Of a stretch of DNA of 64,000 nucleotides, positions 1,259 through 49,680 are shown one piece after another. Under the pieces are notes generated by a model. That model did no database searches. It had not been told where the DNA came from and was given only the letters and a program-made list of their open reading frames with translations. The stretch's first letter is position 1, and each line of letters begins with the position of its first letter. This stretch comes from Zootoca vivipara (lineage: Eukaryota): positions 56,358,001 to 56,422,000 of the forward strand of contig NC_083280.1 of assembly GCF_963506605.1 (NCBI RefSeq), written 5' to 3'. A program made the position numbers and the translations under genes.

Positions 1259-1559
1259 TATTATGTGATGGTTTGTGGTGGTTTGCCAGTTCAACAGCTG
1301 GCAAATCCACAACTCATTCATTTTGTGACTGAGCTCAGAGCAATAACTATTATCACTCAGACAGATATTTGAATCGGTACAAAAAAAAAATTAGTCTCTT
1401 GTCTCTGAGCTTTCAGTCCTTGTCTCACAACTTTTGAAATACCGGTAGTTCACTGTGCTTGTTCAAAGGCATACATTCAGAATGATTCACAATAAACATA
1501 TTTTATTGTATCTCCTGGTCTATTGCATTATTACAGAGTCAGATTCCATTGTGAATCTT

Positions 1560-1830
1560 TCTAAAAGGGAAACTCTCACTCTTTTAGATGTATCCTGCTT
1601 CAGACAGCCTTTTTTATCTAACCCATAATCATTCTTTTCACAGCACATCCTGTCTCATTTTTGTATCCCATGGACAATCTTTGCTTTGCTCTTTTCTTAA
1701 ACTTAATTGATTTCGCTTGTCCATGAGCCTGTATACTTGATCTCGGATCCAAGCCTCTTTTATCTTATCCATTTGAACTGCACAGCTTCTTCGGCAATTT
1801 CTATGATGTTGGGTTGAAGGCACAAGTTAC
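1560..1830 (-). mobile_element. Highly decayed RTE-type ORF2 relic (EN-RT linker)
   Basis: Minus-strand frames give IIEIAEEAV and KIKEAWIRDQVYRLMDKRNQL, resembling the RTE linker motif EAAEE..PWISDETL.LMDERR.LK; frameshifted. Confidence 0.35.
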
Positions 1831-2218
1831 TACTCACCCTTTGTACTTCACAGCACATTCTGGGTTTTTTTAATATTTAAAAAAAATGACTCCTGGTTGG
1901 TTTTCCACTTCCAGATACTGCCCATGTGCAAAAGGTTTCCTTGTTTGCTGAGCCACAGACCATAATTCTTAGACTGCAATCCTCATATACACTTGCTGTC
2001 AGGGACTGGCTAGACAATGATGAATGGTGGGAGGCTCCAAATTGAGAACTCCCTAGGGAAGCTTCAGAAAAGGAAGGCTCAGAGCCAGGAGAGTGTTGGT
2101 GGGACACAGGAAACAGGTCAGAGCACCAACCAACTATGAAAAACTTGAAACGATAATACATTTACTGTAATACAATTGATCTGAAACTTTATTGAACTTG
2201 TTGTGTAGCTTCCATGTG

Positions 2219-2993
2219 TCATGCTGATGACACAACCTTGATGGCAGAAAGTGAGGAGGAATTAAAAAACCTTTTAATGGGGGTGAAAGAGGAGAGCACA
2301 AAATATGGTCTGAAGCTCAACATCAAAAAAAAAACTAAGATCATGGGCACTGGTCCAATCACCTCCTGGCAAATAGAAGGGAAAGAAATGGAGGCAGTGA
2401 GAGATTTTACTTTCTTGGGTTCCATGATCACTGCAGATGGTGACAGCAGTCATGAAATTAAAAGACGCCTGCTTCTTGGGAGAAAAGCAATGACAAACCT
2501 AGACAGCATCTTAAAAAGCAGAGACATCACCTTGCCAACAAAGGTCCGTATAGTTAAAGCTATGGTTTTTCTGGTAGTGATGTATGGAAGTGAGAGCTGG
2601 ACCATAAAGAAGGCTGATTGCCGAAGAATTGATGCTTTTGAATTATGGTGCTGGAGAAGACTCTTGAGAGCTCTAAGAAGATCAAACCTATCCATTCTGA
2701 AGGAAATCAGCCCTGAGTGCTCACTGGAAGGACAGATCCTGAAGCTGAGGTTCCAATACTTTGGCCACCTCATGAGAAGAGAAGGCTCCCTAGAAAAGAC
2801 CCTAATGCTGGGAAAGATTGAGGGCACAAGGAGAAGGGGACGACAGAGGACGTGATGGTTGGACAGTGTTCTCAAAGCTACGAACATGAGTCTGACCAAA
2901 CTGTGGGAGGCAGTGGAAGACAGGAGTGCCTGGTGTGCTCTGGTCCATGGGGTCACGAAGAGTTGGACACGACTAAACGACTAAACAACAACA
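2219..2993 (+). mobile_element. RTE-BovB LINE, 5'-truncated, RT C-terminal part
   Basis: ORF 2214-2855 ADDTTLMAESEEELK..GLKLNIKKTKIM..VMYGSESWTIKK..ELWCWRRLLR is typical BovB; (CAA)n tail; 12-bp TSD AGCTTCCATGTG (2207-2218, 2994-3005); premature TGA near 2853. Confidence 0.95.
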
Positions 2994-5281
2994 AGCTTCC
3001 ATGTGATGTTTCTATAATGAATCAGAAGCCCCAAAGGTGCTAACTCCCTGAGTGCCCAAGCACCCACAAAATTCCCCATAAAGGAACTGGACACCTACAA
3101 ATTTCAGTGCCAGGGCCATACATGCTGTGTGAAACCCATGGCTCTGGGCACTCACGGTTGCGGGATCACGTTGGCACTCCTGAGAAGCCCTATTGTGTAT
3201 ATGGAATTACATCTGTAGTTGTCTGGATTGTTGATTCCAGCTTTATTACTGTGAACATCTACTTTCCTGGACACCTGGCCTAGAGTGATGGCCTCAACAT
3301 AGATCAGAAAGACATGTTCAACCAGATTGCCTAACATTGTATCTGATACACCACATCACTCCCAAAGTCAACCATTTGATCGAAGCCACACTTACTTTGT
3401 TACAATGTAGGCCAGTTTCTCTGTGTACCAGATTTGTACCTAAAACTAGAGTACAGCTTATTTTGTAAGCAGGGTGTTTATTTCTTCAAGATGTGACATC
3501 TTACGCCCAGTTCGAATTGCTCCTATCATGTCCATGCAAAAAGCACCAACTGCCCCTGAGAATGTGATGTGTCACCTACAGAGAATGGGATATATCACCC
3601 AAGGCACTCTGAGATACAGGTGTGGTTCCGTAGCAGCCCCTTGGGCATTACAGTACAGCAGAACATTTTAATTATTCAGCTCCAGCGATCATAGAAATCG
3701 GACTCACTCCCAGGTAAACTGTAACCAAACCCAGAAGCAGCTTAAGTCATCCTTTGCATTCCCCATGTGATAGTTAGGATTCACTTCTGCCAAAGACTGT
3801 GAATGTCTGAAGCAGCCCTTAGCTAGTCCATATTAAGCTTTGGTCATTTTGCTGGTTGGGATCTAGATTTATATGAGACACTGGAATTATATGCACATCT
3901 GCAAATACCAAAAGCAAATGTTCAGACTTTGGTGGGATATATCAACTCTTGCAACCCAGGGTGGCTGCTTTTCCTTGCAGATGATGGAAGCACTATTTTG
4001 AGAGTATTACGTGTTGCAGAATGTTCTGGTGCAGTGCTACTGCCCTTTCATTGTCTATGCCATCCCATATCTTACATGCATTTTTTACAGCATGTGTTGT
4101 GATATGTCAAGATGATTAGACTATACCAGGTGATTAAGCTATAGAGGGGTAGCGTTGGCTTAACTATTGCTTCTCATGGGATCAGCTCCCTCCCGCACCC
4201 CATCTCTGATATGAATTCCCCAGCGATGCAACAGTGCGATCCCAGAACAGTGCTGTAGCAACAGTGTTCAGCTGATTTGTACAGCAACTCTTGCTTCTGA
4301 TTTACCCAGCCATGTAATTGTGCAATAAATCAGCAGGAAGAAATAAAGCATTTTGAACAAGGTAGAAAACGAGCACATCCTTAACCAGGCATTACTTCTG
4401 GTGTCAGAGAGAGTGGAAAATAACAGCAGGGCCTAAGCCAAAGGTGGAAACAGTGCAATCTATGACAGGATCTGTGTTTCCCCCTCATCAGAGTTAATGC
4501 AAGATCTCTGTAAACTGTAACAGTGAAATATGACCTCTCTAACCCAGGCCAAAGAAACAGTGTGGCTACATCAGTTCCTAGGATCAGAAATGAGCTGAAT
4601 GTACTAGAATGCACATTAAATAGAAATTCATTAAACTGCCGGTGAAATCAAGGCCTGAAAGACAGGAGAAGAATGCATCAGATGCAGTTGCTAATCCTGA
4701 AATATACAGTAGGTCCATCCGTCCCTCAAATCTGGTCTGATCATTAGGTAGAGAGAAGCAGATTGGGGTGTAATCAAAGGAAAGCAAATTGTTTGCTCTT
4801 AAGAAATATATGCTTTGAGAATACCTACCCGGGGAACGCGGTGAAATGGTCCACTAGTAAGAACAGCCAGCCATTGCGATGCCGTGATTAAGTGAGGAAT
4901 TTCCACATATACTATAAAAGAGACAACTCTGTTACCACTGCAAGTGTGGATCAGCTGACTAAAAATCCACATCTGGCACAAGCTGCTAATGCAAGTCAAA
5001 ACAGCTAGTTATTTTATTTATTTGTTTCTTTGTTTGTTGCATTTATATCCCATCTTTTTCTCCAAACATTTGTTTCAAGCCCTGAAGAGGCTGAGAGGAA
5101 GGGTATGTCAGAAGGAAAACAAATTGATACTGAGTTTTACATAGATTAGCAACTTTGTATTAATGTAACTTTTTTATATGCAACTGTGTGTTTTGCACCA
5201 CAGCAGAAACCAACAGTTTGTTGGAATAAGCAAGAGCCTTTAATTAATACCCACAATACTGGAAGGGATGAGGTACTAGAG

Positions 5282-5716
5282 CAGGGGTTCCCAAACTACG
5301 GCCCGGGGGCCGGATGCGGCCCAATTGGCCTGCCAATCCGGCCCGCGACGACCCCCGCCGCCCGCCACCGCCCGCTCTTACAGCGCGCAGCGCGGCAGCG
5401 CTCTTCCGGGTCAGGAAAAAAGCGCCGAAAATCCTTTGTGCGCATGCGTATGGGCCTCTCCCGACCCGGAAGAGGTCATTTCTGGTGCACTTCCGGGTCG
5501 GGGGAGGCCCATACGCATGCGCACAACGGATTTTCGGCGCTTTTTCCACCCTAGAAGCGCGCCGCCGCGCCAGTAAGCACCCGTGCGCATGCGCATGGGC
5601 ACGCACTCCCCCGCCCGCCGGCCCGCACAGGCGCGCGCTCCCCCTTGTCCTCCGGCCCGCCGCACGATCGGCGCGGTGGGAACCGGCCCAAACGCCGGTA
5701 AGTCTGGGGACCCCTG
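5282..5716. mobile_element. hAT (Charlie-type) MITE, 435 bp, with long internal hairpin
   Basis: TIRs CAGGGGTTCCCAAACT / AGTCTGGGGACCCCTG; perfect 8-bp TSD TACTAGAG. Confidence 0.92.
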
Positions 5717-6022
5717 TACTAGAGGATGTGGGAACAGAGAGCTAGGTGCCCTTTCTGAGTTGCCTATTTCAGCTTTGCTTCCACCTTTCCTGCTTGCTTC
5801 TGATGTAATCAGTAATGGCTGGTGTTGTTAATTCAAATATACAGTTTAAATTTTACCAGCCTGTTCATTTTCCTTGTTGTGAGGCAAACACTTCCTCTGC
5901 AACATAGTTTCTGTTAGCGAACTCCTTCATTGTCACATACCACATCCACCGGTTGTGTCAGATGGCCCTGCTCTCAGGTGCCAATGATGTTTAAAGATTG
6001 TACTAGGGTTTTTTTTTTAAAA

Positions 6023-6528
6023 AGAAAAGGTAAAGGACCCTTGGACGGTTAAGTCCAGTCAATGGCGACTCTGCGGCTGCGGCACTCATCTCGCTTTCAG
6101 GCTGAGGGAGCCGGCATTTGCCCACAGACAGCTTTCCGGGTCATGTGGCCAGCTTCTGGCACAATGGAACATCGTGACGGAAACCAGAGCACATGGAAAT
6201 GCTGTTTACCTTCTCGCTGTACCAGTACCTATTAATCTACTTGCACTGGTGTGCTTTCAAACTGTCAGGTTAGCAGGAGCTGAGACAGAGCAATGGGAGT
6301 TCACTCCACCACAGGGATTCAAACCGCCGACCTTCTGATTGTCAAGCCCAAGAGGCTCAGTGGTTTAGACCAGTGGTCCTCAACCTTGGGCCTCCAGATG
6401 TTTTGAGACTACAATTCCCATCATCCCTGACCACTGATCCTGCTAGCTAGGGATCATGGGAGTTGTAGGCCAAAAACATCTGGAGGCCCAAGGTTGAGGA
6501 CCACTGGTTTAGACCACAGTGCCACCCC
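6023..6528 (-). mobile_element. Sauria SINE interrupted by a MITE
   Basis: (ACCTTT) tail on minus strand, tRNA-like head; 15-bp TSD TTAAAGATTGTACTA (5991-6005, 6534-6548). Confidence 0.92.
6371..6506. mobile_element. 136-bp hAT MITE (URR1-like core) nested in the Sauria SINE head
   Basis: TIR CAGTGGTCCTCAACC; perfect TSD GTTTAGAC. Confidence 0.93.
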
Positions 6529-6711
6529 CACAATTAAAGATTGTACTACCAGTACAACAGGGTAAGTCGTCCCTAATGGTCTACAAGTTTTTGCCATGTA
6601 CACTATCTGATGTTACAGATGTGATGTGATCTTAATGCTTCGTTTTCACTGGCTGGAGGATTTTATCTGTCACTGTTTGCAAACAAAGCAAAGTTACTGA
6701 GCTAGCAGAAA

Positions 6712-8109: not shown

Positions 8110-8111
<2 letters not shown>

Positions 8112-8153: not shown

Positions 8154-8154
<1 letters not shown>

Positions 8155-12445: not shown

Positions 12446-13560
12446 TTTTGAGATATTTCCTAGTGGTATGCTATTTAGATCCACAAAAATGAAGAGTTTA
12501 CATATTCTTCTCCAATGCCCTGATTTTTGTTTTTTGTTTTTTGAGGCAGGTGTTTTAGATGTTAAAAGAAAGTGTATGGCAAGCTTAGAGCAAATACTTT
12601 GCACATTATTTTCCAGCCACCTACATTCTTTTTTCCCTACTCTGAAACACAATCGTTCATTACATGCTAGCTCTTCTGCAGCACTCTTTAAACTACTATA
12701 GATAATACCACTGCAATAATTACACCATGAAGGGGAAATGAATAGGGTTCTTTTGGATACTGACAGGAGACAAAGTATGTATTCATATGAAATTTCAATG
12801 AAAGGAGAATTGCTGAAGCAGGGAAATGAAAAGATACGGGAGAGAAGAGGCAAACTTTGCTCCAAGCCACAGACAAAGTGATATATTACTTTAGAAGGGA
12901 TTAAGATCTATAGGGCCCAGCAGCTGAGACACTAGGTTAGGAAGTGTGTGTATGTGTTTGATTTCCATATGTCACCAAAGACTCACTGCATAATGTATGT
13001 GAAATGATCATATGCCTATGAGTTTGTCAATTAAGTCTCATGGCCACACTTCCAGTGTGCACACACCCTCTGGATGCCTGCACTCTAGAAAGTTCACTGT
13101 AAGTAAAGACCCCTGGCTCCATATAGTTTGCAGACTAAAAGCAACAGCAGCAAATACCGGTACTGGTGGTATTTGCTGGATTGATTTCCATTCCAGACAC
13201 AGGATGAATAAGTGAACATTGGCAATTTCGACTCCCGTTTCTATTTCTGTCGGAATTCTATGACATACCTAGTCAAATCCTGTGCATTTGCCAGTGTTAT
13301 CTATATTTGCCAAAGAATCCAGAGTGTTCCTGTTGGTCTCGCCACAATACTTGTTTGTTTGTGGATTTATCTGTTTATTTTTAATCATATCCTCAGGCTC
13401 TGTGGTCAGGTCACTTGCATTTGTCATATAACCTCTTGAAGAATTAAAGTTGGGTTTTCTGGGCATTTTCTTCTGGGATCATTTGTCCTAAATGCTTATA
13501 GTCAATTAATCTCTGATAATTTCATCTTTCAAAATTCTGTACTCCTTAAGTATACATTGC

Positions 13561-13964: not shown

Positions 13965-14135
13965 GCTTGTAGAGCACATGGCTCACATACAGGCTTGTCC
14001 CAGGTTCAATGCTCTGGTGTCCCCAGTAGAACTGGGAATGTTTCCTACCTGAAACCCTGAAGAGCTCATGACAGTCAACATAGATAATACTGAGCTAGAT
14101 TGGCCAATAGTATAAGCTAGCTTCTGATATTTCTA
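13965..14135 (+). mobile_element. tRNA-head, CR1-tailed squamate SINE (Squam3-like), diverged
   Basis: TAGAGCA..CCCAGGTTCAAT B-box, CTGAAACCCTG..ATACTGAGCTAGAT; paralogs at 27025, 29503, 47925, 55287, 57582. Confidence 0.65.
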
Positions 14136-14220
14136 TGTTGTTTGGTTGGTGAGCTGCTTTGGGAAGGCGGCAAACTTGAAAGGTGGCTTAGAAATTTTAA
14201 ATGAAGGTATGTTCTTCTTC

Positions 14221-14523
14221 TTGAGAGTCCCATGGACTGCAAGAAGATCAAACCTATCCATTCTGAAGGAAATCAGCCCCGAGTGCTCATTGGAAGGACA
14301 GCTCCTGAAGCTGAGGCTCCAATACTTTGGCCACCTCATGAGAAGAGAAGACTTCCTGGAAAAGACCCTGATGTTGGGAAAGATGGAGGGCACTAGGAGA
14401 AAGGGACGACAGAGGACGAGATGGTTGGACAGTGTTCTCGAGGCAGTGGAAGACAGGAGTGCCTGGTGTGCTATGGTCCATGGGGTCACGAAGAGTCGGA
14501 CACGACTAAACGACTAAACAACA
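14221..14523 (+). mobile_element. RTE-BovB 3' fragment
   Basis: LRVPWTARRSNLSILKEISPECSLEG..; (CAA) tail; 12-bp TSD ATGTTCTTCTTC; ~33-bp internal deletion relative to the 2219 copy. Confidence 0.95.
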
Positions 14524-20862: not shown

Positions 20863-21690
20863 AGGATAAAATGGAGATAGGGAAAACCATGTAGATGGCA
20901 CCTTAAACTTTCTGGAGGAAAGGTGGGATATAAATGTAATCAATTTATTTACTAATGCAGCCTTTAAAACAGTTTAAAACAAATTACAATCACAGCTACA
21001 GTGGGTTCAAGAAATTTATATCTCAAGTGTCAAAGATAAAGAGGTGCATCTTTAACATACAACCCAAGTTGTACAATGAAGATGTCAAAGGTTGCCTCTG
21101 TGGGGAATAGCGACATAATACCGGTAGGTACAGAGTAAAAGACCCCTGCAAAGCTTTGAGCTTTATAACCTCAACGGCTTCAAACTGCTGACTGAGGGTT
21201 TTTTTTCAGTCTTTTCAAAAAAGTTCGGTTGTTGCTACTTGAAAGTGTTAGCATACTGTTAAAAATTATATTCACTCCATTAATTCAGTTTATAAAATAT
21301 GCAGTTCGCTGTGGCTTTGAATAACTGGGAAACCTACGACGGCCTTCAAGAGTTCTAGCTTACAGATCATTCAGATTTCAAGTCTGAGGGGTTGCATGGG
21401 TGTACAACATCTACACAGCTATTTAATAATAACAATAATAATTTCCTTGCTAGGTTTCCAGTGGAGCAAGGCCAATATTTCAGTCAAAGCAAAGCAAAAC
21501 AAAATGTTACCTACTATAAATACAATCTCAACTGAGAAATTTCCAGCATTTAAACAGCCTCCTACCCAGTGTTCGCTGACCCGCAGTGGGTCCCCAGGGT
21601 TTCATACATGTGTCTTTTCCAGCCCTACCTAAGGATGCGAAGAATTGAACCCGAGACCTCAGGTGCTCTGCCACTGAGCTTCCCCTAAGC

Positions 21691-21826
21691 CAGGCATCCC
21701 CAAACTGTGGCCCTCCAGGTGTTTTGGCCTACAACTCCCATGATCCCTAGCTAACAGGACCAGTGGTCAGGGATGATGGGAATTGTAGTCCAAAACATCT
21801 GGAGAGCCGAAGTTTGGGGGTGCCTG
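21691..21826. mobile_element. 136-bp hAT MITE
   Basis: TIR CAGGCATCCCCAAACT; TSD CCCTAAGC/TCCTAAGC; sits at the head of a SINE relic. Confidence 0.92.
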
Positions 21827-22257
21827 TCCTAAGCCATAGCCCTTTCCCTACTCTAATGCAAACATCTGGAGAGCATCCCGTGTGCTGCCTCTGCTCAACG
21901 GCATAATAAGAATTTGAGTAAAGCATGTAACTTAATGAAGCTCATTATACACAACACCAGTGTTTTCTCATGCAAACATCTGCATTGTTATTCTAGAGCA
22001 TGATTTTATTTGGGTATCTGCTACCTTTAGTAGTCCTAGGCAGTTCACTACCTAAGGAATGCAAGACCAAATGGAGACCAAATGGAGGCTAGAAGAGAGG
22101 GCAAGCAGAGGTGATGAGACAAACATTCAGCGTCTAGTTTCATTATAACTGTCTGAGGTGTCTGCCTGCTCCATAAATAGAAGAAAGCAGACCTCTCATT
22201 TCATTTCATTCATGTGGTTTAAGAGACAACAGGCCTCACCAGCTGCAACACAAGATA

Positions 22258-22258
<1 letters not shown>

Positions 22259-22307
<49 letters not shown>
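22259..22307. repeat. (CA)n microsatellite
   Basis: Perfect run. Confidence 0.95.
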
Positions 22308-22308
<1 letters not shown>

Positions 22309-23011
22309 ATGAAACAGGATTCTTTTATCTCCCTCTTAGGAAATGAAAATATGGACAAGTTTGCTTTTCGAGGCTGCAGAAAGCCACAGAAATGTGAAAG
22401 GCACTTACATAAATAATATTCACATTTATTTCCCGCCATGTCTATATTTACCTTTACTTGCCACTTTCAGTAGCATAAAACGAAGCATTTCTAGTTTGTC
22501 ACAAACGGGCCTTTTATTAAAGGCCAGAGTTGAAATACCTTTGTAACAGTTCTTCCTATCAATAAACAAGCAAGCTTTGCACTATACAATCCAGACTTTG
22601 TCACATTTAGGGTTAGCAAGCTCGTAACCTCATGTTTGGGCCAGATGGTTTGCATTAGAATGGGCACCTTAAGAATAAACACTGCTCTCTGCCTGGAAAC
22701 TCATTTGATACATCTTGCCAGACAATGTACAGAAAAAGCAATGGCATGTAGGCTGCTCAGGAAAATTAAATTTGCTAAAACTTAAAGGGCCTTCTTTGTC
22801 CTTCGGTTTGTCCTTCAGTTAAAGCTAATGTTTTCTGGTTGGGCCAGTCCAATTAACCTGTGGCTATATCCAGCACTCACTATGCAGATTGACAACGACA
22901 AAAACTGAGTAGCCCAACACAGCTGGGTAAAAGTATGTTAAAAACTGCACCACTGATTGAAATGCCCCGAGAAATAGCTACAAATCATGAGCACTCTTAT
23001 AGAGTGCTGAA

Positions 23012-23471
23012 GGGACGTGGGTGATGCTGTGGGTTAAACCACAGAGCCTAGGGCTTGCCAATCAGAAGGTTGGCGGTTCGAATCCCCGCGACAGGGTGAG
23101 CTCCTGGGTGACCTTGGGCTAGTCACACTTCTTTGAAGTCTCTCAGCCCCACTCACCCACTTAGCCGCTTTGAGACTCCTTCGGGTTGTGATAAAGCGGG
23201 ATATCAAATCCAAACTCTTCTTCTTCTTCTCCCATTGCTCAGTCCCAGCTCCTGCCAACCTAGCAGTTCAAAAACACCTCAAAGTCCAAGTAGATAAATA
23301 GGTACCGCTACACCGGGAAGGTAAACGGCGTTTCCGTGTGCTGCTCTGGTTCACCAGAAGCGGCTTTGTCATGCTGGCCACATGACCTGGAAGCTGTACG
23401 CTGGCTCCCTCGGCCAATAATGCGAGATGAGCGCCGCTCATCTAATGGTCAGGGGTCCCTTTACCCTTTAC
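23012..23471 (+). mobile_element. Sauria SINE with a nested foreign SINE 3' fragment (about 23106-23229)
   Basis: GGGACGTGGGTG head, GGTTCGAATCC B-box, CCTTTACC tail; TSD CTTATAGAGTGCT; insert ends in (CTT)n. Confidence 0.92.
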
Positions 23472-26400
23472 CTTATAGAGTGCTATAGCTGCTGGTTGAA
23501 CTTCTGTCATTAGACAGATTCCTGACCAATTCCCCAGGATATTTGGTTGATGGCTGATCAATGGGTTGGGATTTGGTCCTCTGAGAACTTGAGATTCCTC
23601 TTTGGTGTTTTAAATGGGACATGCAGTAATGTTGCCTAAACATTTGAGTCCCTCTTCATAACCACTCCTGATTTGTAAAATTAAAAAGCTTTACCTTTTA
23701 TTATTATTATTATTCTGTCCACTAATGAACTTTGATTTGAGCCTGGAAACTATTTGATAGCCAATGCAGTCGTGCCAGAATTGGTGTTATATGTTTGGAC
23801 TATCCTGTCCCAGTCAACAATCTGGCTGCCATAGTCTGCACCAGCTGCAGTTTGGAAACTTCACATGTATAACAGATTGCAGAACTCCAGCCTAGAGGTT
23901 CCCAGAGCATAGACAATGGAGGTTAGTCTGTTCATGTATATTCTGCTTTTCATCCATGAATCCCAAGGCAACATTCATGTGGTTTCAAGACTGCCTTCCA
24001 TCTAGGTACCAGCCAGACACAGGCAGTGTAACTTCATCAAAGTTCCATCAAGGGTCTTCCCATTTTCTGGGACCAGGTCTCTAACACATAGAACAACTTA
24101 TCAAATAGATCACCATTGTTTTATGGGCTCGCCAAGAACATCCAGCAAGGATGTGGAGAAGTTCCAAGTGATAATGATCCACATGGTAACCAACTCCCAT
24201 TGTAGTCTCTGACTGCATACACTCTATCGTTTACTCTGCATCCAGTATCTATCCTGTTGTTTCTTATAAAATACTGCATTTTGATGCCTTTCCCCCCAAA
24301 CCAGCTTCAATATTAATTGAGAAAAAGAAACAATCTAGCTGCAATTTAAGCTGGTAATGTGTACACAGTCTCAGTGTAGAACACTTGGCAGAAGAAGCCT
24401 GGTTTGAGAAGCATTTGTCAGGGCAAGAACAACATGAGTCAGTCTAGGGGGGGGGGAGCCATTCGGTCTACTTAACACAAGCCAAAAGTCAATCTAGGGG
24501 ACAGAAACCATCTAATCTACTTAACACAGGCCTCTGGTTTGAGAACATTAGGAAAATGGACGCTTTTTTCTTGCAGAAACTGCCTGCATTACCCAGTGAA
24601 TGTATTGCCCATTTCTATTGAACATGTGCAAACAACATGAAAAAGTCAGAAGACAGACTGAAAGAATCACAAATTGCAGACCTCATGAGCATGGAGCTCT
24701 CTCCCCCGCGCTTCCTGCTCCTTGCTTTTCTCTGGAGTTCCTGCAGTTTCAAATGAGTGAATACATGACAGCTAGCCTTCTAAGATTTGACAAGTACCTA
24801 TGTACTGTGTGAAATGAATATCTGCTTCAAACAGAATAGGAAGAGGACGAATAACTTCCCAGGGGTCTGACAATATTCACTCTATTTTGAAACGTTAAAT
24901 TTCAAAATATACTAGGATTTCTACCTTGGGGCCAGTGCTGATTTAATACAGCTACTCTGTTAACCATGGTTAAGGGTTCAGGACTGGGTGGTAGTGGGCT
25001 TTCTCTTCCCCCAGTATCTCCTCTCTCAAACCAGCGTTTTCCCTGCTTTCTCTCACCAGCTTTAACCATAGTTTGAGGTTACACTGGCAGCAATACCGGT
25101 AGGGTATACCGGTAAGGGGGCACACAGGGTTTGAAGCTAGTAACAACACCCTGGCTATGTTCGAGTCCTGGTAACATTAACCATGGTTCAGATCAGTACA
25201 TAACCATGGTGAAGTTGTCAGGGGGAACATAAGCCAAATAAGAAGTACTAGGGAGAACTTCTACAGCCTAGTCACATTTACTTAAGCACAGTTCAGTATT
25301 CAGTTTTTGTTGAAGATATATCTGCTGCTATTAATGCATTTCCCTGTCATAAGCCTCTGATGGCAATTTCCACTCAGATGGTACAGAATACTTTGGGGGA
25401 GGGGACATACCACCAGTTCCTTATTGTCTTCTATATCCATTGGCTATTTTTGATGATGTCTTGAGTCCAAACAAGCATTGGGTTGGATATGTGTCTATGT
25501 CACTTGGAGTATGACCTGGGGTGGCACAAAGTTTGTTGTGTGCACAGCCTTATTCATTTTTAAATATTTTGATGTTTGTTGTATGCACATAGTAGGTTGA
25601 GTCAGGTCATATAATGGAATCAGAGTTTGGGCATGTCTTTGGAATCTTCAAAACCAAACCTACTGAGAAGCCCCAGTACTCCAACAACATGTGAACGGTA
25701 CTTGTTTCTATTAGACTTCAGTCCCATTCATTGTAGTGGAACTTTCTTCCATACAAGTGGCATAGATCTGTCAACCATTAGCATTTCCATATGTCCTTTT
25801 CAGTGCAGCTCAAATGCAGCAACTCTGATTTGTGTCTTATTTGCCTGTGACTCTGATTGATGCTCAAAAGAAGACAGCTGGCATTGCACAAGTACAGCAG
25901 AAGGTTATAGCCATGGAGACTTGTGTTTAAAATTCGTAACACAAGTCTGGGGATTTTTACAGAGAGGAAGAAACATATTGAGGCCTTTCATGTTCTTTGA
26001 ATTTACTCAGCTTGGAAGTCAGATAAATTGTGCAATCCCATTATGCTTATAATTGAGGCTAGTCGTTAGTCAAAGCTAAATAAGCCTGAATCTACATCTG
26101 TGCTGCATCACATCTCTTTATTCCAAAGTTATTCAAGTAAACAAATCAAGAGAAAGTATGTTGAATTTCCCTCTCACTGTCTGAATTTAACGAATGTATC
26201 TTACCTGTAGCTTAAACGTATTTCACTTGTGGCTTGAAATTACATTCCTTTATAGATCTTTTTTCTTACCAGGCTCATTCACTATCCCCATCCCTCAAAA
26301 ACATAAAAGGTTCTATATATGAATCTTGTAAATATCTACTGGTTTCAGGTAGCCATCCCTGGTACATAAAAGTCCTATTTTCTTGTGAGGATGAAACTAT

Positions 26401-30539: not shown

Positions 30540-32623
30540 CATTACATTCGGTTTTAGCTCCATGAGCATCATGTGTTAAGAAGGTGAGCTGATTCAGTAC
30601 CTCCAGGGTACCAAGCGAAACTGAATGAGCATCACATTTCAAAGACCCAGAGCAAACTGGGGCAGTGGATCAGGAATCAAAATTCTTATGTGTAACGTAA
30701 CTTCAGACGTTTTCATCAATGGTCTCAGGAATGCGTGTAGTTACAGCCAACCACCTCGTTGTTACAAAATATGTTTTTGAACCCTAGTAGCGGCAGGGAA
30801 TAAGTGCAACTATGACATTAGAAGCTTAAGAAGCCACCTTATCTAAATATGCAGCTGATTGGATATGCTCTGGTTTAATGACAAAATTAAATGAATATGA
30901 CTCATAAAGGCTTGTTAGATAGAGCTGGTGGGAAAATATTCACTCAGGCTATGCTGTATGATAATTTTTTCAGACTGTGATCAAATCATGAAATCCTTAA
31001 AAGAACACCTGGAGTGTGAAAGGTTTAAGTTTAATAGCTTTGTAAAATCTTGCCCAGCAGGCAAGGATAATAGCTTAATGTTATTTGCATTTAAAACCTG
31101 AGATTTGGGATTCTCTGCAATAAAACAGTAACTGTAAAGAATCTTTTTAAGAATAGGAAGAATGCTTTAGTAAACAATATCTTTTTTATAAACATGTATT
31201 AGTGTGATTTTATAATGTGCTTTTTGTGAAGAAGTTTTAATTTTTTAGCACTGACAAAAATAATGTATGGCAGAATTTTGCTAGCATTTCATAATCATGC
31301 TATATTATATAACATAATGCATAACAAAAAACCACATTTCTAAAATTTACACATTCCTTTCATAACAAGTTCTATACACTGAGATGTTTTTGAGGTTCAA
31401 TACAACTAAAAAATAGCATTTAACATCTGAATCAGTAAAGTTGTCTTTGCAGTATGGTTCCAGTTAACTTTGATGCTATCCTAACTCTCTCTTTTCTTCT
31501 TGGTTCTTTGGTAATGAGTTACATTGGAAATAATTGCAAAATACTGTATTTTATCCAGTCACCTTTTCAGTGCATGTTAGTTTTAAAAGCACCCAAGTTT
31601 TTGTACGTTTGTGTTTTCCTGGCTATATTGACATCCCAAACACAGCTGTAATCTGCTAGAGAGGTCTATCTTTCTGAGATGAGCCTTGTTGTAGGTGGCA
31701 ATGCTTTAGATGGTTTTATATATCATTTAAAATAAATCTATAATATACTTAGTATATTATAAATCTATAATTTATACTTAGTATAAAATGAATAGTATAC
31801 ACTATTCATCAGTGTTAGGGAAATACCAAAGGTAGTTTTCAAAATCTAACTTTGTAATAAGTATTAAAGGGGACACATGAAACTTCCACTACAAGAGACC
31901 CTAAGTCTCTAGACTTGTTCCATCAGGCCCAAATAGTATCAACAGTATTATTAAAGTATATTCTTCCATACTTTAATGCAAACAATGCATATGTTTTACT
32001 GCATCTGCACTACAGCATGTCAGTTTTTCTAATCAAACTCTACTTGATTTCCCATTGGAAAATGCAGTCATGATTTTGAGACGTTTAAGCCCTGACTACA
32101 GTGGCTCATTAGCTGCACATCATCCATTCAGGGAAAGCTCTGATGAACAATAATGATCCATTCAGTTCCACGGTTGCTTCTACATAATAATAAAAAGCAC
32201 TGTGCTATAAAATATTAACAAATTTGGCCTTATGAAAGCAATAGGATTGTACTTAGTCAAATGCCCTTCTGCTAATTGCACCGTTGCAAAAATGCCGCAG
32301 TAAAAGCAGTCTGAGAGAAACTTCCCAAGGTGTTTTGCAATGTGGCAAAGGACAGGAAGTACAAGCCTCACATTTTGCCTTCGAAAAGTAGGCACAACTG
32401 AAAGCAATGCTGTGTATAGCTTTGGATAGATAAAACCAGTTTTATCCTTCCAAATAGTTTTAGAGTTTTTCCGTGTACATCCAGTAAACCCTCAATCTGG
32501 GTTGCTTTGTAATCCCTAGTAGTCCCTACTAATTTCTGCACAGAGCAGCAATATCTCCTAACAGAACATACATCAGCCAGGGGAGGGATGTGATCTGAAA
32601 ATGACATGAGGAAAGGGTTAAAG

Positions 32624-32658
<35 letters not shown>

Positions 32659-33231
32659 CTAAAATAGTCTTGCTTCCTTCTGGCAGCTATTTACTTAAAT
32701 GTGAAGGGTCAGCAGATCCAGTCAAAGATCCCCATCATCTTATCTAGGTTCTGATGTGTGACACAAAACTGTAATGTACAAGTGGGGTTTGTTTGTTTTC
32801 TGTAAGCCTGTCAAGTATTTAGAGCCACAGCAAACATGATAGAATACTAAAACAAATACAGCTGACATTTGGCACTGATGGGAACTTTTTCCTAAGGCTT
32901 CCAGCCCTGCACAGCAGCCAATCTCCATGTTGATCTTGGTGGAGGAGTGAAGTGACAAGTCTGCCCTTCCCATGTGCAATGAGAATTGAGCTTCCTGCCC
33001 CTCTAATTCATTAAGGAAAACCAGATACATAGCTGCCTGCTACATATTAAGCAGTGTCTAGGCAAGTTCTAAGAAACAATGCATTTTAATTTGCCAAGGA
33101 TAGCACATGAATAAGACCAACTGTTTTATTACCAATTTTATTGCTAACCATAGCATCTCATTAGGGTCAACATTCCTTGCCATGGTTGATTTTGCCTTTA
33201 AAAGCATCCAGAAGGTTAGTATAAGAAGAGC

Positions 33232-34140
33232 CATCTAGTTCAGCATCCTGTTCTCACAGTGGCCAACCAGATGCCCATGGAAAGCCCACAGGCAAGACAT
33301 GGACCCAAGAGCACCCTAGCCACTGACATTCAGAGGCACACTGGCTCCATTACTGGTAGTCGTACTCAGCCATTATGACCTTGATAATCTTCTCCTCCAT
33401 GAATTTTTCTAACCCCCCTTTAAAAGCTAGCCAACTTAGTAACCATCACTGTGTCTTGTGGTAGTGAATTACATTTTGTCTCTCCTGGATCTTCAAGTAC
33501 TCAGCTTCAATGATTGACCTTGGGTTCTAGTATTACGAGAGGGGAAAACCTCTCTCTATCCCAGGTCCATGGTCCATGTGCTCTGGTCCATGGGGTCACG
33601 AAGACTAAACAACAACAATCCCAGGGATAGAAAGATGGCCCTCCAGATGTTGCTGGACTACAACTCCCATCATCCCTGAACATTGACCATGCTTGCTGAT
33701 GGAAGTTGTAGTTAAGGAACATCTGAAAAGTCAAAGGTTCTCCACCCCTGCTTTCTCCACACCAAGCAGTTTTATGTCCCTTCTTACTCATATTCTTTCT
33801 AACCTAAGAAGTCCAAAATGTTGCAACCTCTCCTTGTACAAAAGCAGTTCTAAACCCTTTGATCATTTTGGCTATTTCTGAACCTTTTCCAGGTCTACAA
33901 TATTGGCTTGGGGGGGGGGATAAAGTGACCAGAACTGTATGCAATATTCCAAGTATTGACAGCTTCATTTTCAATCCCTTTTCTCCTCAAGACAGAATTT
34001 GTCTTTTTTACAGCTGCCACATGCGGAGTCAAAATTTCACTGAGCTATCCATCACAACCACAATCACAAAATCTCATTCCTGGTCAGTCAATGCTAGTTC
34101 CAACACAATTCACAAATATGTGAAGTTACAAAAAATTGTC
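33232..34140 (-). mobile_element. Old CR1 3' region, interrupted at about 33561-33750
   Basis: CATCTAGTTCAGCATCCTGTTCTCACAGTGGCCAACCAGATGCC and GACCAGAACTG..AATATTCCAAG are CR1 antisense motifs. Confidence 0.7.
33566..33617 (+). mobile_element. 52-bp BovB extreme 3' insertion
   Basis: GTGCTCTGGTCCATGGGGTCACGAAGA..CTAAACAACAAC; TSD ATCCCAGG. Confidence 0.85.
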
Positions 34141-35389
34141 TCAGTGTGCAGGTGGCATGATCCGAATGGTATTCTGATCACATCTTTTGAAAGCCTATTT
34201 GCAAGCAGAGAAACCCCTGTCAGTGGTCACATTCACCCCATACATTTAAAGTGTTACCATGCCACCTTCAACAGTCATGACCTCTCCCAAAGAATTTTGG
34301 GAGCTGTAGTTTGTTAGGGGTGCTAATAGTTGTTACAGGAGCCTATAATCCCCCTTACAGAGTTACAATTCTCAGTTTTTTTGTGTGAAGACAGATTTAT
34401 TGTTAAATCAGTCTGATAATCATAGCTTAGGTGGATATAGGGTTCTTCTCTGAAATTCCTTTCCTCGGTCAGCTTTTAAATGTATAGAAGGGTAGGGGGA
34501 AGTTCATAACCTTACATCTCTTGCAAACAAACCTTACTTGGACAGTCTACAGTTGCCTAAAGGAAACATTTATAAAAAGGTAAAAGCCCTACAGATGTCT
34601 TTTTAAGACTTGTTTTGCAGCCCCCTGAGATGCATAAAAATAAATCTTCCTCTTCCAAATCTTTCTGCCTAGAGAGAGAGATGTTTTTACCCCCTACCAG
34701 CTGGATCACAGGCAAGCAATACATGCTGCCTATAAAGTCCTGGAAGAACAACCACTTGAACGCCACCAGCAAAACAGCATTCCCAGATTAAAATGCAATA
34801 AAAGAGAAATATGTGATAATGAAACCTCAACAGCTCACCGCAAGATGCTTACCAAAACATTATGCTTCTGAAGGATTCCAGCCTCTTGTCTTCTTTTTCT
34901 TTTTCACACCAGATGGTCAAGGGACTCAATGTCTCAGTTTATATAATGTTCAGACTTTGCTATCGTGAGGCCTGTCTCAGATTCAATTTTCACCTAAGCT
35001 AGTTCTTTTCGATGTTATGAAAAAGGCAATAACTAATATGTCTGTGGGAGTTTTGCTATCACCATAGGCTTTTCAGGGAGAAAACAAAAATGTGCCTGTT
35101 CTGAGGGTTTATTTGGGGACCACAGAAAACATTTGCTAGGAACATTTTAACATATGTCATGTCTTTATTTTATGCCTTGGAAATATAAGCTCATCCTTTT
35201 ATCCTTATTTCCACAAGCATTGTTTTCGAATTAACACTTCCATTGGACTTATCAACTGAAAGTGTAAGTAACCAAAGGTCATTTAAAGATTATTGTTTAC
35301 ATTGTTCTGAGAAAAGCCTATCATTTTCATTAGGGACTTTCCTCTTTAAACTAATGGTTTTCTATTTAAGAGTAAGGCATAACATATTT

Positions 35390-35449
35390 CAGGCATAGGC
35401 AAACTCGGGAATTGTGGTCCCAAAACATCTGGAGGGACGAGTATGCCTG
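35390..35449. mobile_element. 60-bp minimal hAT MITE
   Basis: CAGGCATAGGCAAACTC...TATGCCTG; perfect TSD ACATATTT. Confidence 0.88.
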
Positions 35450-35523
35450 ACATATTTCTATTTTTGAGGAGGGGTGTTTGTTTTGATTGGCCACTTCTCC
35501 TGTACGGTATTAGCCATTAAACA

Positions 35524-35840
35524 GCCTCAGCCCAGTATACCTGAAGGGGCGTCTCCACCCCTATCATAGAGCCCAGACACTGAGGTCCAGTGCTGAGGGC
35601 CTTCTGGCGGTTCCCTTATTGCAAGGTTACAGGGAACCAGGCAGAGGGCCTTCTCGGTGGTGGCGCTTGTCCTGTGGAACGCCCTCCCAACAGATGTCAA
35701 GGAAATAAACAACTATCTGACTTTTAGAAGACATAAGAAGGGAGCCCTGTTTGATGTTTTATTGTGCTTTTAATATGCTGCTGGAAGCCGCCCAGAGTGG
35801 CTGGGGAGGCCCGGCCAGATGTGTGGGGTATAAGTAATAA
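35524..35840 (+). mobile_element. L2 3' fragment
   Basis: Homologous to 10500-10860. Confidence 0.88.
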
Positions 35841-36932
35841 ATCATCATCATCAACATACATTTTCAAATAGTCTCCTATGTGCTCAGAATCCCCACACTT
35901 TAAGCTCTCTGCAGTGTGGCTTCCAGTCTGGAAGCAGTTCTTGGTGTGCCATGTGACTATATAACATCACAAAGTCCAGGGGTTGAGGAACCCCAAGGGG
36001 CAAACTCATAGGTGCCAGCTGCTAGGGCTGAGGCACTTTTGCCCCTGCCCCCAGTGTTCAGAAGGTGTTCAGCTTGACCCCTGGGCTCCTCACAACGTTG
36101 CGCGTGTGACATCAGGATCGGGGGCCCTCAATCATCTTGAGAAGATAGCACCTCTGGATACACTCCCTTCAAGGAAACATGCCAAGGACCACACACCAGT
36201 GTTGGGCAGAGTCAGAGGCAAAAGTGGCCAGAGCAACCAGTATACCTGTGTACTGTAAGCTAGTTTCTACACATATTCACACATCCCTCTCCACCCTGGC
36301 ATGACTAGAGTCATGACCAGGGTTCAAGGACACATTCCAGCCAGGCAAAAACACTCAAGGAAAATGTGCAACAATGCCAGTGAGGGCATGGTATGGGGAG
36401 AAAGAGTAGCCTGAAAAAAATCCCAAGAGCCAGACAGAGAGGCCCAGAGGACCACATGGCATAGTCACTTGGAGATCTAGGGAAGTGCTACAAAGCTAGA
36501 AGCCTGCATGCACAGCTCTTCATGCTACTACGAACACATGTGGAACTTTTTACTACAATGTGGTTTTTTTAATGTTTATGTTTATTAAACATCATAGAAA
36601 ATAATAAAATGGTAAACAAAACTAACAGCAAACACACATGGCTTCCCCCAGGTAATTAATGTACATCTCTTCTGAAAAAAAGGATCAAATGGATCAATGT
36701 ACACATTCTTTATGCTCTTGTCCTAACAGGTTGGCCCAAATTTACCATGTGTTAACAACAATAAAGTCCTCTCAGCCACCTCATACAGTAAAATAAGGTA
36801 AGCGCAACCTCATGTCCTTCAAAAAAGTTATTTGATATCAAAACTTCAGCTGCTGCCTGTGACATAGTGGTTAGAACGTTGGGCTAGGACCTGGGAGAGC
36901 AGGGTTTGAATCATCATCATCATTTTTAGTTA

Positions 36933-37042
36933 CCGTATTTACTCAAATCTAATACAGCTACTCACCTTTTGGGGCCAAATTACATTGCAAAAATTAAGGT
37001 GCACATTAAATTCAATGGTGCATTAGACTCGAGTAAATACTG
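36933..37042. mobile_element. Tigger/pogo-type MITE with CCG/CAG ends
   Basis: TA-CCGTATTTACTCAAATCTAAT...ATTAGACTCGAGTAAATACTG-TA. Confidence 0.85.
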
Positions 37043-37365
37043 TATACTTCGCCCATCTGGCTGGGTTGCCCCAGCCACTCTAGGCACCTTCCTGCACACA
37101 TAAAATAATCATAAAACATCAAACATGAATAGTAACAATCAGATCCTATATAAAAACTCACAATGACTTTAAAATAAACAACTTATATCAAATAAAGCAA
37201 TATTCAATTATCCATTAGAATCCCATAGTAAACAATAAAATTAAACATCAGCAAATAATAATTTGCACTTACCAATTACAGTAAAGAATTACTAATCTAT
37301 AATCAAGGAAATAACAGCAAATCACAATGCATGAAATACCACAAAACATACAAGATCATGTAAAA

Positions 37366-37485
37366 CAGGCATCCCCAAACTTCAGCCCTCCAGATGTTTG
37401 GGACTACAATTCCCATCACCCCTGACCACTGGTCCTCTTAGCTAGGGATCATGGGAGTTCTAGGGCCGCAGTTTGGGGATGCCTG
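37366..37485. mobile_element. hAT MITE of the 136-bp family with internal deletion
   Basis: TIR CAGGCATCCCCAAAC; perfect TSD ATGTAAAA. Confidence 0.92.
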
Positions 37486-45293: not shown

Positions 45294-45680
45294 CATGGGC
45301 GTACCCAGGATCAAAACTAGGGGGGGGGCAAGGGGAGGGGCCAAGGCACGGAAGGGGAGGGGCCACAAAGTGGGCGGGAACGGCGAACTCGCCCTCCGCC
45401 GGGCTGTGCCCCTCCCTAGAAGCAGGGCTGGTGGGCGGAGGCGGAGCCCAGCCCAGCGGAGCGCGAGTTCAGCGTTCCCGCCCGCCGCGCCGCGCTCTCT
45501 GGTTCCCCGCTGCGCTTGGCCTTGCCAGAGGGCGCGACGGGGAGCTGGAGGGAGGGCGCAGCGCGGCGGGCGGGAACGGCGAACTCGCGCTCCGCCGGGC
45601 TGTGCTCCGCCTCTGCCCACCAGCCCTGCTTCTAGAGTAGGGCAGCTGCCCTAACTTGCCGCATGGTGGGTACGCCCTTG
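45294..45680. mobile_element. GC-rich hAT MITE, 387 bp, nested in a CR1 3' relic
   Basis: TIR CATGGGCGTACCCA / TGGGTACGCCCTTG; perfect TSD AATGGTAC; flanks rejoin into CR1 antisense. Confidence 0.9.
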
Positions 45681-47740
45681 AATGGTACCATCTAGTCCAG
45701 CATCCCGTTTCCTACTCTGGAAAACCATGTGCATTTCAAACAGGAAGGCAGCAGTCCCCCCCCCCCCCCATGGTTGTTCTAAAGCAGCTGGATCTGGTGT
45801 CTGCATAGAGTCATCGTGACTAGAGCATAGAGTCATTCTAACTGGAAGAAATGTGATTGCAGATAGAAAATAAGAGTAAAACAAACAATGGAAGGGATAA
45901 TGGCATCCATGTGGAGAGCTATGGAAAGAGTACTAAACTAGCCAGAATTTCATCAGACCACTTCTTATCTGCACTACACACTGTGTTATGATTCAGCATA
46001 ATGGCAACAAGCAATGACATCACAACTCAAAAGTGTACACAATCCTGAAAAATTCCTAAGTCTCAAGCTCTGTTGCTACTACCCTGTTGCTACTACCCTG
46101 GCACCTGTCGAGGTTGAAATCCTATGCACACTTACGAGAGAGTACAGTCCATTGAATATAGTGGGACTTACATCCAAGGAAACACATAATACTCAAACAT
46201 CTCAAACAGGCATTGGTCATAGAGTACAGGATGGGACAGTAGCCTTTAGAGCAGCTGTGAAGGACCAGCAAGGTGAAAACTTCCTAAAGATGGAAGGGAA
46301 CAATGAAACCCCAGGAAATGATAGCCTAATTGGCCTTTTCCTACTAGAGTGCTTTGACTGTTTTTATTTTAAAATTCTTGTGCTATTAATTAATCAGTCT
46401 GATCATCACCCACTCTGAGCTGTCCAAGGATAAGACCTGCTAACTACAAGAGCTATAAACCATATGTCCTATTTCTTATCCCAGCCGTCTTACAATGCGT
46501 GCCATACTTAACATCACATGTGGCAGCACTTATGTAAAATTGCATGTTTAAAAAATAGCTCAGCAAGCTACAACAATACTAACCTAAAACGCACTGAGAT
46601 GAGTTTGACCCCCTTTTGCTTCAGGAAATCACTGGCACAGTCCCAAAGCTTTGTAAGCAAAAGCCTGAGGTTTTACTGGTGTTTTCACACCCTTCCAGCA
46701 CTGGACACAATCCAGCCCAAGTCAAGCACTTTGTGTCCGCTGAGTTCCCTGGGAGAGAGTTAAGCACACATTTAACTCTTCCATTAAAATCAGCACCAAA
46801 AAGAATATGCCTAACTTGGGCTGGATGTTGGCCTTTGATTCTGTCAAGGCATCACAAGACCTAAGGATTCTTGTGCTGTAAGGCAAGTCCATGGCTTGTT
46901 TGTAAAAAAAAAATGTATGTGATAAAGATGAAGGGAAAACATGCTCATCTTAGCAACCACCAACATTATATCAAAATGAAAGCTAAATGAAAGCTAATTA
47001 CCCCTATGGGCTCGGCACCTGTTTTATGAAGCTTTGATCCTACATTTGTAATATTACTTTCCCGTTCTGATATGTATTTGCTTAATCTCTAGATGCTATT
47101 CATTCTCAAATATAGGTAAATGATGACCTCATTACATATGTCCCATGATTTACTAAAAAATTCTTTTAACCATTTATCTTTGCTAAAGCAGCAGCTGCAG
47201 AATCAGGGTTCTCAAGCCACAGGTAGTCCTTGTCAAGAACTCCCTTAGAAAACTCCTTGGTCCTTTACCTGGTTTCTTGGCTCTTATGCTGCCCAGTGCA
47301 GATTTAGCTCAAAATGAACACCTAGGCTTAGAAACACCCTGCAAAGCCAGAGAAGGGCTCAGAGGAGTTCAGATTTGCAGGAATTCCAAAGGAAGATGCC
47401 CAAACCTCCAGAGTGATCAGGTCTAATGATTTATCAAAGAAGGGTATAAACTTACAGCAAAGGTCTGAAGGCTTCCTCCTCTACTTGGCTCACAGCATTC
47501 CATGGGAGAGACTCCACAGCAAGGAGATGGCTTGTCTACCCCCAAGTAAAGAAGCACAAAATCTTTACAGCACCTGGCAGGCTATGTCACATGGGAACAC
47601 AGGTGGCTGGTATTAATCATTACCTCCCTCTCTAGCTATGCCTATGAGCTTAGTGCTACACTTATGAGCTCAGTGCTACAGCTGCTACCAATTAGGTAGG
47701 GGTCACATGCCTAGTTTTGACTCTTTCTGAATACTTGGGG

Positions 47741-47876
47741 CAGGCATAGGCAAACTCGGCCCTCCAGATGTTTGGGGACTACAACTCCCATCATCCCTAG
47801 CTCACAGGACCAGTGGTCAGGGATGATGGGAATTGTAGTCTCAAAACATCTGGAGGACCGAGTTTGCCCATGCCTG
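47741..47876. mobile_element. 136-bp hAT MITE
   Basis: TIR CAGGCATAGGCAAACTCGG; perfect TSD ACTTGGGG. Confidence 0.95.
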
Positions 47877-48221
47877 ACTTGGGGTAATACCACATGTGCA
47901 ACTCAGCAATGCAGACTCTTGTGCCAGCCCTGAAGAGCTGCTTCCAATCCGTGTAGACAATACTGAGCTAGATGGACTAGTAGTCTTCATATAGCTTATC
48001 AACGTCTTATGTTCTGTGGAACAAGTCTCTAGTTTCAAAAAGCACACTTGCAGCACCATTTCAAGCAGTCTCTAGTGGCCATATCATCAAAAGCCTTCTT
48101 AAGATTGACTGCAAGCATCTTCTACAGATGCAACCCATGTTTTGTTTATGCCCCTGGCTCCCTTCTGAACACATAGAAAATGTCATAGAAAAGACACTAT
48201 GTAATGCAGTATTCAGCTAGG

Positions 48222-48654
48222 TGTGCCATGAGCATGCTACAGTGTCCTGGCCCTCCCCAGCCAAGGAAGGGACACTTCTGATAGTTAACTCTTTATTGAC
48301 ACAAAAAAACACTTGCAGCAGCTTCCATAGTGCTCAATACACACACACTTCTAGCCTCTAAGCATCTGTCCACAAATCTAGGCCCTGGGGAGCAGTTGCA
48401 GCAACAAGGAGAGACACACACCCCATCCTTGCAAGTTTATATACCCACTCCTGATGGGTTACTTGCCCATAACCTGCGACTTTCCTGCACAGAATTTGCT
48501 GTTGCTCTTCCTGCTTCAAGCCCCTCCTTATTCTAGGAGACAGTGGGGTGGAGGAAGGTGGGGAGACTACTGGCCCTGCAGGCAGCATCAAACCCCATAA
48601 ATCAGTGGTCCCCTCTCCCGGGTCACTCTTCTAGTCCCCTTCCTCTGGCCAACA
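48222..48654 (-). mobile_element. Possible old solo LTR
   Basis: TG..CA-like ends; minus-strand TATAAA (48436-48441) about 140 bp before AATAAA (48292-48297); no TSD found. Confidence 0.4.
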
Positions 48655-49356
48655 CTCTTCAGAGTCCTGTGAATTCCCTGGCATACAGTGACTCATCCAG
48701 GAGATTTTTTATTTATTTTTTACACTCAGTATCAAATTAACTTTTACATAAAACAGGATTGCTCTTTTTGATTAAGCAGGACCCCATGTGATCAATGAGA
48801 GGTCAGGGAGTCTCTAGTTAAAAATGCTGATTAGCTTTAATTTTAAACTTGGATTGGACCAATGTTGAACCAGAAAATAACAACAACAAATTAATTAGGT
48901 TGCAGATGGAACAAACTGTGTCTTGTTTTTTTTTTTGGCTTCTTTTTCTATGTTAATGGAAAGTGATAATCACCGTGCTTGATAATGTTAAAGAGATTTG
49001 AATGAATGTGCTGTTACTTTCATGGGTTTATTCCAGTTGCAACTTGTATGGTGGTAAATGAGAAGGCTCTCTTAATGAAATAATTAGAGTACAGTTTCTA
49101 AAATGGCAGAGCAATTGAGATCAGAATTAAAATAATCCTGTCCCTCCATTATGGAAGATTCTGTAATTTTGACAACTTACAGGCGTGTGATTTAAAAAAC
49201 AAAAAACAAACAAACTTTGGTATTCATCACAACAAAAAAGTTGATCTTCCTTAAGGTGTCTCAGTTTAAGCAAGAATGAGAAAGACACAGATACAGGAAG
49301 CTAGGTTTTGGGCTCTATGAGCATCTTAGGGTACTGGATGCATCCCTATAGATTTG

Positions 49357-49680
49357 CATACTCTCCAACATTTCTACAATGAAAATAGGGACATCCCATT
49401 CTATAATGGTAATTTTACTATTTGTACCCCACACATCTTACGGGGTTGACCCAGCCACTGTGAACAGCTTCCAACATAGATAAGAACATAATAAAACATT
49501 AAACTTTTTTTAAAAAAACAAACCTTCCCGATACAGGATTGCCTTCAGATGGCTCGTGGGTTGGATAGCTCAACACCCTCCATCATTTCTCCAATGAAAA
49601 TAGGGATCGAATCAGCCCAGGATGGTTTTTCTAAATCAGGGACATCCCTGGAAAATACCGGTAGGGACACTTGGAGGGTG
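49357..49680 (+). mobile_element. Composite hAT-like MITE carrying a captured L2 tail
   Basis: Ends CATACTCTCCAA / TTGGAGGGTG; TSD TAGATTTG/TGGATCTG (6/8); inverted paralog at 51254-51956. Confidence 0.75.

Follow-up and report, generated by a model that had tools for sequence, protein, structure and literature searches.

The Passer family of the pogo superfamily, as characterised in the passages of PMC9976928 and PMC7386202 drawn on here, combines a DD35D transposase carrying HTH_Tnp_Tc5 and DDE_1 domains with terminal inverted repeats (TIRs) shorter than 30 bp, duplication of a TA target and an open reading frame (ORF) of 400–500 aa. Elements alike in all these respects occur in the genome of Zootoca vivipara, and the present analysis concerns the traces of their departure. 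It starts from a stretch of 64,000 nucleotides on contig NC_083280.1 (positions 56,358,001 to 56,422,000; hereafter the window, in which all positions are counted from its first letter) that contains six copies of TACCGGTA. This sequence is, with high confidence, a six-letter insertion at TA, left as the repair scar of an excised CCG-ended Passer-family transposon or of one of its MITEs (miniature inverted-repeat transposable elements). Published Passer footprints measure 0–4 bp in the same passages, and are compared with the scars described here by length alone. Unlike that work, which in these passages deals with elements and plasmid excision products, the natural scar load of a whole genome is addressed here.

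Two further systems invite comparison. Sleeping Beauty leaves the footprints TACAGTA and TACTGTA (bioRxiv 10.1101/659086), i.e. the same arrangement of TA, end letters and TA, and inserts at the L2-like TA described below are most often of its CAG/CTG and two-letter CA/TG forms. In contrast, the eight footprints given there hold at most three letters between the TAs, and the palindromic four-letter form would be peculiar to CCG ends or favoured by them. Excision scars found in rice, as presented in a passage of PMC4423477, include deletions with filler, with a loss of about 18 bp and a gain of 13 bp, resembling the window at 25094–25114. The 94 rice excisions were read by hand and are mostly irregular, whereas a k-mer excess here reveals stereotyped scars in the tens of thousands. 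Excision footprints and Passer elements are already known, and the basic mechanism is textbook. The literature searched (subscription journals lay outside the search) gave no vertebrate in which such scars had been counted across the genome, and TACCGGTA as a search word returned nothing relevant.

TACCGGTA is an eight-letter palindrome with 32,985 occurrences in the 1.44-Gb genome, the repeats of which resemble those of lacertids. The six window copies listed in the original prediction (1440, 13155, 21119, 25094, 25107 and 49656) were all recovered, and its estimate of fewer than one octamer per 64 kb agrees with Markov expectations of 0.12–0.34 (order 1–4). The genome-wide enrichment it had proposed to look for amounts to 9–13 times the Markov background (2,958–3,628 copies expected from a 400-kb sample, 2,450–3,347 from 640 kb), so about 90% of the octamers are excess over background. 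The CpG-free reversed control, ATGGCCAT, occurred at 0.9–1.1 times its own Markov expectation. The three-letter variants TACCGTA and TACGGTA together reach 79,940 copies genome-wide versus about 21,500–26,200 expected. Four such heptamers lie in the window, where the genome rate predicts 3.55: the three named beforehand (121, 35503 and 49732) and a further TACCGTA at 36931, which is the left end of a 110-bp MITE. TACAGTA and TACTGTA were counted 127 times in the 400-kb sample (L011–L050), compared with 47 expected; scars of the CAG type probably outnumber the CCG type but are masked by a higher background.

Two properties of the window itself did not extend to the genome. The genome rate gives 1.47 octamers per 64 kb, and six in one window is accordingly rare (Poisson P = 0.004; P = 0.017 when counted as five events), albeit about 90 windows this octamer-rich are expected per genome. 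The flanking 240 kb holds five octamers, the genome average. The octamer excess reported for the window is thus real genome-wide, whereas a local hotspot is ruled out and the window's density is an upward fluctuation. The A that precedes all six window octamers is due to chance. ATACCGGTA accounts for 9,127 of the 32,985 octamers (27.7%), is equally frequent on the two strands (9,127 vs 9,033) and was seen at two of the five flanking sites. This share and the strand symmetry rule out the preceding A as a motif feature or strand bias; it is not part of the signal.

Insertion at TA is directly visible where repeat copies with and without the extra letters can be aligned. The short repeat around 49656 has a plain TA in 2,444 genome copies. 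Five copies are filled, three with CCGG (the window copy included), one with CCG and one with a local duplication, and they differ from one another at other letters. The clean insertions of CCGGTA, CCGTA or CGGTA relative to an empty site, whose detection had been suggested as a check, were thus observed: a duplicated TA surrounds the terminal letters of the element, as defines a footprint. Of 65 octamers taken without selection, 20 could be compared with one or more paralogues from the sampled DNA. In ten of these (13155 and 49656 among them), situated in different hosts, paralogues lack exactly six letters; four are internal to a repeat (two in one palindromic MITE, two in another repeat) and six are ambiguous. 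At control TACCTA sites with at least two paralogues (n = 37) a modal four-letter loss occurred in none, and length was conserved in 30.

The same comparisons bear on a possible origin of the excess mainly in one or a few repeat families with an internal palindrome, or in scars copied by retrotransposition, rather than in independent events. The four repeat-internal cases among the 20 testable octamers point that way, but they amount to 4 of the 65 unselected sites, and half of the testable octamers are six-letter insertions in different hosts. Copies of the L2-like repeat with the same scar are slightly more alike (0.77 vs 0.74, permutation P = 0.073), which may point to some copying of scars by retrotransposition and would to that extent tell against independent excisions. 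Still, such copies are at most 93% identical, and the three carrying CCGG 79–86%. A repeat-family origin is therefore considered very improbable. The centre of the palindromic MITE (L155:5000, L161:5000) is occupied by TACCGGTA or its decayed form, perhaps an ancestral scar that multiplied along with the family. The reading of the octamers as excision scars is supported with two corrections: 25094 and 25107 belong to one complex event, and about 4 of 65 octamers are repeat-internal.

One and the same TA of a repeat that we take to be L2-like is found empty, occupied or scarred in different copies. At this TA, 3,286 copies are empty and 149 contain TA-x-TA inserts, i.e. 4.3% of about 3,435 non-occupied copies are scarred. 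Longer inserts gave 114 pattern matches, with a CCG start in 14 of the first 100. Thirty loci were read, comprising 24 CAG-ended elements (one without a clear right end), two CCG-ended elements and four scars with a mutated flank. The CCG-ended elements (L227 and L235; 162 and 1,367 bp) end at a TA from which the host repeat carries on, and the whole elements carry TA duplications. With whole elements at 26 of the 30 loci, this TA near the 3′ end of the repeat (L064–L093, L214–L243) is an extreme target hotspot.

A hand tally of the first 100 of the 149 inserts is dominated by CTG (29) and CAG (23), with CCG and CGG at five each. CCGG was found six times, CAGG and CCTG three times each, CCCG and CGGG twice each, and CCCGG once. 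The remainder are eight single-letter variants of the three-letter forms, eight two-letter forms, three double scars, one longer stub and one local duplication. The double scars at this hotspot are scars that were re-targeted. A census with relaxed flanks, in which all 45 four-letter inserts were listed, gave CCGG 22, CTGG/CCAG 7, CAGG/CCTG 11, CCCG/CGGG 4 and one other. The first letter is C in 45 of 45 and the last G in 44 of 45.

Tc1/mariner transposons are excised by staggered cuts. The element discussed here inserts at TA and duplicates it, giving TA-CCG...CGG-TA; by analogy with this chemistry, its excision would leave three-nucleotide CCG overhangs on both donor ends. Overhangs of the 3′ type are described for excision in a passage of PMC4423477. 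Joining in full register would yield TACCGTA or TACGGTA. Since both overhangs end in the self-complementary CG, they could also pair by 2 bp at the terminal CG, and subsequent fill-in would produce TA-C-CG-G-TA, i.e. TACCGGTA, without a mismatch. On CAG ends the shifted register would be mismatched and would give CAGG or CCTG. CG pairing would explain the unusually frequent four-letter scar of CCG ends, for which the ratio of four- to three-letter forms is 6:10 compared with 6:52 for CAG ends (Fisher P = 0.017), and we regard this annealing step as fairly likely.

On paper, the same product could arise without a transposase: the inverted ends would form a hairpin, and replication slippage or microhomology joining between two CG dinucleotides would remove the interior and leave TACCGGTA. 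This route, which would speak against excision, also favours the four-letter scar for CCG over CAG ends (6:10 vs 6:52). However, it predicts longer, variable inverted-repeat stubs, of which one was present in 100 inserts, while the spectrum at a single TA is dominated by the canonical three-letter forms of both end types. Moreover, intact and near-identical transposase copies exist in the genome, and two-letter forms of the TACATA/TATGTA type are present, as in the Sleeping Beauty footprints given in bioRxiv 10.1101/659086. We judge the hairpin route improbable.

Donors with the ends expected of the excised, CCG-ended element were found. A DDE_1 profile search of the genome gave 96 matches, and 13 of 20 further loci are full-length elements of 3.1–3.9 kb, inside the 1.6–4.0 kb span of Passer elements, with one ORF of 431–527 aa; the ends were checked and read TA-CCGTG in 13 of 13. 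The search for an intact CCG-ended transposase that the original prediction had called for thus returned intact genes. Copies are 100% identical over 3.1 kb in the pairs L131/L132 and L133/L134, and 99.97% in L127/L130. Together, the loci L124–L138 on several contigs make up a Passer family that is young, ends in CCGTG and has intact ORFs, with pairs 99.97–100% identical over 3.1–3.5 kb; the identical intact copies are a candidate active reptile transposase. The second and third D are separated by 35 residues in L134, L127, L130, L125 and L126, and HTH_Tnp_Tc5 and DDE_1 scored above cut-off in two of two proteins, for which BrkDBD, optional in Passer, was not reported. A search of solved protein structures with the transposase gave no match. 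The DD35D spacing is the Passer signature in the passages of PMC7386202 and PMC9976928. Judged by domains, spacing, TIRs, TA duplication and ends, the donor most likely belongs to the Passer family. The proposed CCG-ended pogo/Tigger donor hence survives as a CCG-ended pogo element but, being DD35D, as Passer and not Tigger.

The CCGTG family was compared with published PasserB in end motif and ORF length, using table rows of PMC9976928. Both its ends and its ORF of 431 aa agree with the entries for PasserB (Schmidtea PasserB1, Crocodylus PasserB), and the older CCGTA-ended relatives L113 and L114 begin like the Zootoca and Lacerta Passer rows. The four lacertid Passer rows compared give CCGTA ends and one or two intact copies, in contrast to the CCGTG family with at least 13 intact copies, several of them 100% identical. 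Genome-wide, CCG-type element ends number 16,301 versus 2,632 for the control, i.e. about 13,700 recognisable ends. At L142:2457-5252 a CCG-family DDE_1 remnant lies nested within a second TA-flanked element whose inverted ends differ.

The flanks of scars and donors were compared for 111 scar half-sites, 66 CCG ends, 118 CAG ends and all TA. Scar and CCG-end flanks are alike (P = 0.39, 0.14 and 0.70 at −3, −2 and −1), and both depart from all TA at −3 and −1. The base at −1 of scars differs from that of CAG ends (P = 9 × 10⁻⁹) and of all TA (P = 5 × 10⁻⁶). Tigger was rejected as donor of TACCGGTA, as the DDE_1 element in L101, presumably Tigger-like, and the corresponding MITEs end in CAG, with flanks unlike those of the scar by the same −1 comparison. 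A donor with four-nucleotide overhangs is not supported either, because no CCGG-ended or CCC-ended class stood out in the TIR scan. Scar flanks are A-rich at −3 and −2, in agreement with the AAGTACTT Passer target given in a passage of PMC9976928.

Twenty sequencing runs from four organisms contain part of the window between 19000 and 28500. The related organisms B, C and D have about one fifth of their words in common with the window, at roughly 5% divergence. At 25093–25115 all three show clustered substitutions and gaps, with neither octamer intact among the differences listed. The conspecific X1, an independent short-read assembly, equals the window at 25094–25114 among the differences listed. 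This segment is likely one complex deletion-plus-filler replacement rather than two clean insertions, formed by templated repair after excision. At 21108–21147, organisms B and C show no net length change, and B no substitution, among the rows listed; on this alignment the octamer at 21119 seems to predate the split from organism B or to be background.

The unchanged sequence at 25094–25114 in the conspecific also bears on the idea that the octamers arose as an error of assembly or polishing, or are kept by selection as a binding site for a protein. Nothing favours this beyond the methylatable CCGG within TACCGGTA, while CpG-decayed forms exist and the scars lie in decaying repeats, at the target that the transposon itself uses; we give the idea hardly any credence. 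At the L2-like TA, 7 of 29 CCGG-class inserts are CpG-decayed (CTGG/CCAG). The decay forms TACCAGTA and TACTGGTA total 40,438 genome-wide versus 31,300–37,400 expected, a background-limited count from which octamer CpG decay is put roughly at 10–25%. The argument that unmutated CpGs indicate recent origin was overstated: because of the decayed inserts and the octamer at 21119 seemingly shared with a sister taxon, the scars are not uniformly recent. Their ages are mixed, with scars dating from either side of the divergence from sister taxa.

Several further points weigh against excision scars as the source of the octamers. No paralogue was available for comparison at 45 of the 65 unselected sites, and among the 20 testable ones four are internal to repeat families and six ambiguous. 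No clean six-letter difference was seen relative to an orthologue, 25094–25114 being a messy replacement and 21119 apparently shared with B. The four-letter excess of CCG ends drops to P = 0.09 once decayed three-letter scars are allowed for. CCCG and CGGG (4 of 45 four-letter inserts) are forms that neither CCG nor CAG ends should give, and the TIR scan gave no matching class. Finally, no excision event itself was observed.

Read as excision scars, the octamer excess means that past transposon jumps have likely left minute, unannotated marks in this genome by the tens of thousands. We infer roughly 28–30 thousand independent intact four-letter scars, after subtraction of background and about 6% repeat-internal sites, and roughly 45–50 thousand intact three-letter CCG/CGG scars, less background and element ends. 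CAG-ended (Tigger-like) elements left still more, as TACAGTA and TACTGTA. We incline to a wider view, held with only modest confidence, in which excision scars from two pogo families make up a major category, so far unannotated, among the small insertions of lacertid-like genomes (about 75–80 thousand intact CCG-type and perhaps a few hundred thousand CAG-type), several-fold more numerous than recognisable CCG-ended residents; CG–CG annealing would create mismatch-free palindromic scars that seed new CpGs datable by decay, and a still-mobile PasserB family would be adding more. Resident copies alone enter into estimates of DNA-transposon activity. If k-mers, together with the empty, occupied or scarred condition of repeat TAs, allow scars to be counted, it would become possible to measure excision relative to retention in the germline of a vertebrate, CpG decay serving as a clock. 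The six-letter scar preserves reading frame and adds a CpG, and independent identical scars at hot TAs would add homoplasy to indel markers.

Table 1 Scars, candidate scars and related elements in the window (a point in the strand column: no strand assigned)
Feature	Position	Strand	Basis
TACCGGTA, probable four-nucleotide scar	1440..1447	.	About 90% of octamers genome-wide exceed background
TACCGGTA, six-letter insertion relative to one paralogue	13155..13162	.	Paralogue L180 (74% identity) lacks the six letters; empty site TG, not TA
TACCGGTA, apparently common with sister taxon (older scar or background)	21119..21126	.	Inferred from comparison with organisms B and C
Double TACCGGTA (25094, 25107), single lineage-specific replacement: deletion plus filler	25094..25114	.	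Organisms B, C and D differ
TACCGGTA, clean six-letter insertion at TA in a short repeat of about 2,400 copies	49656..49663	.	Alignments, 2,444 empty vs 5 filled copies
TACCGTA, candidate three-nucleotide scar	121..127	.	
TACGGTA, candidate three-nucleotide scar	35503..35509	.	
TACGGTA, candidate three-nucleotide scar	49732..49738	.	
CCG-ended MITE, 110 bp, flanked by TA left and right, with a right end that mutation has turned into CTG	36931..37044	.	Inverted ends
CAG-ended TA-flanked MITE, Tigger-like	49925..50113	.	23 of 25 end letters inverted

No paralogues of 1440, 121, 35503, 49732, 21119 or 25094 were found within about 1.4 Mb of sampled genome DNA. A host gene was not detected in the window, none of 100 non-repeat ORFs (from 128 listed) matching Pfam. 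By its ends, the CCG-ended MITE of Table 1 is a resident of the CCG-ended donor class. The end type of the CAG-ended MITE also flanks the DDE_1 gene in L101, and this MITE represents the donor class of the commoner TACAGTA/TACTGTA scars. The window further contains reverse-transcriptase-type LINE fragments at 2196–2878 and 14128–14517, which we take to be RTE-like, and copies of what are presumably SINE, L2-like and hAT-like MITE repeats typical of lizards.

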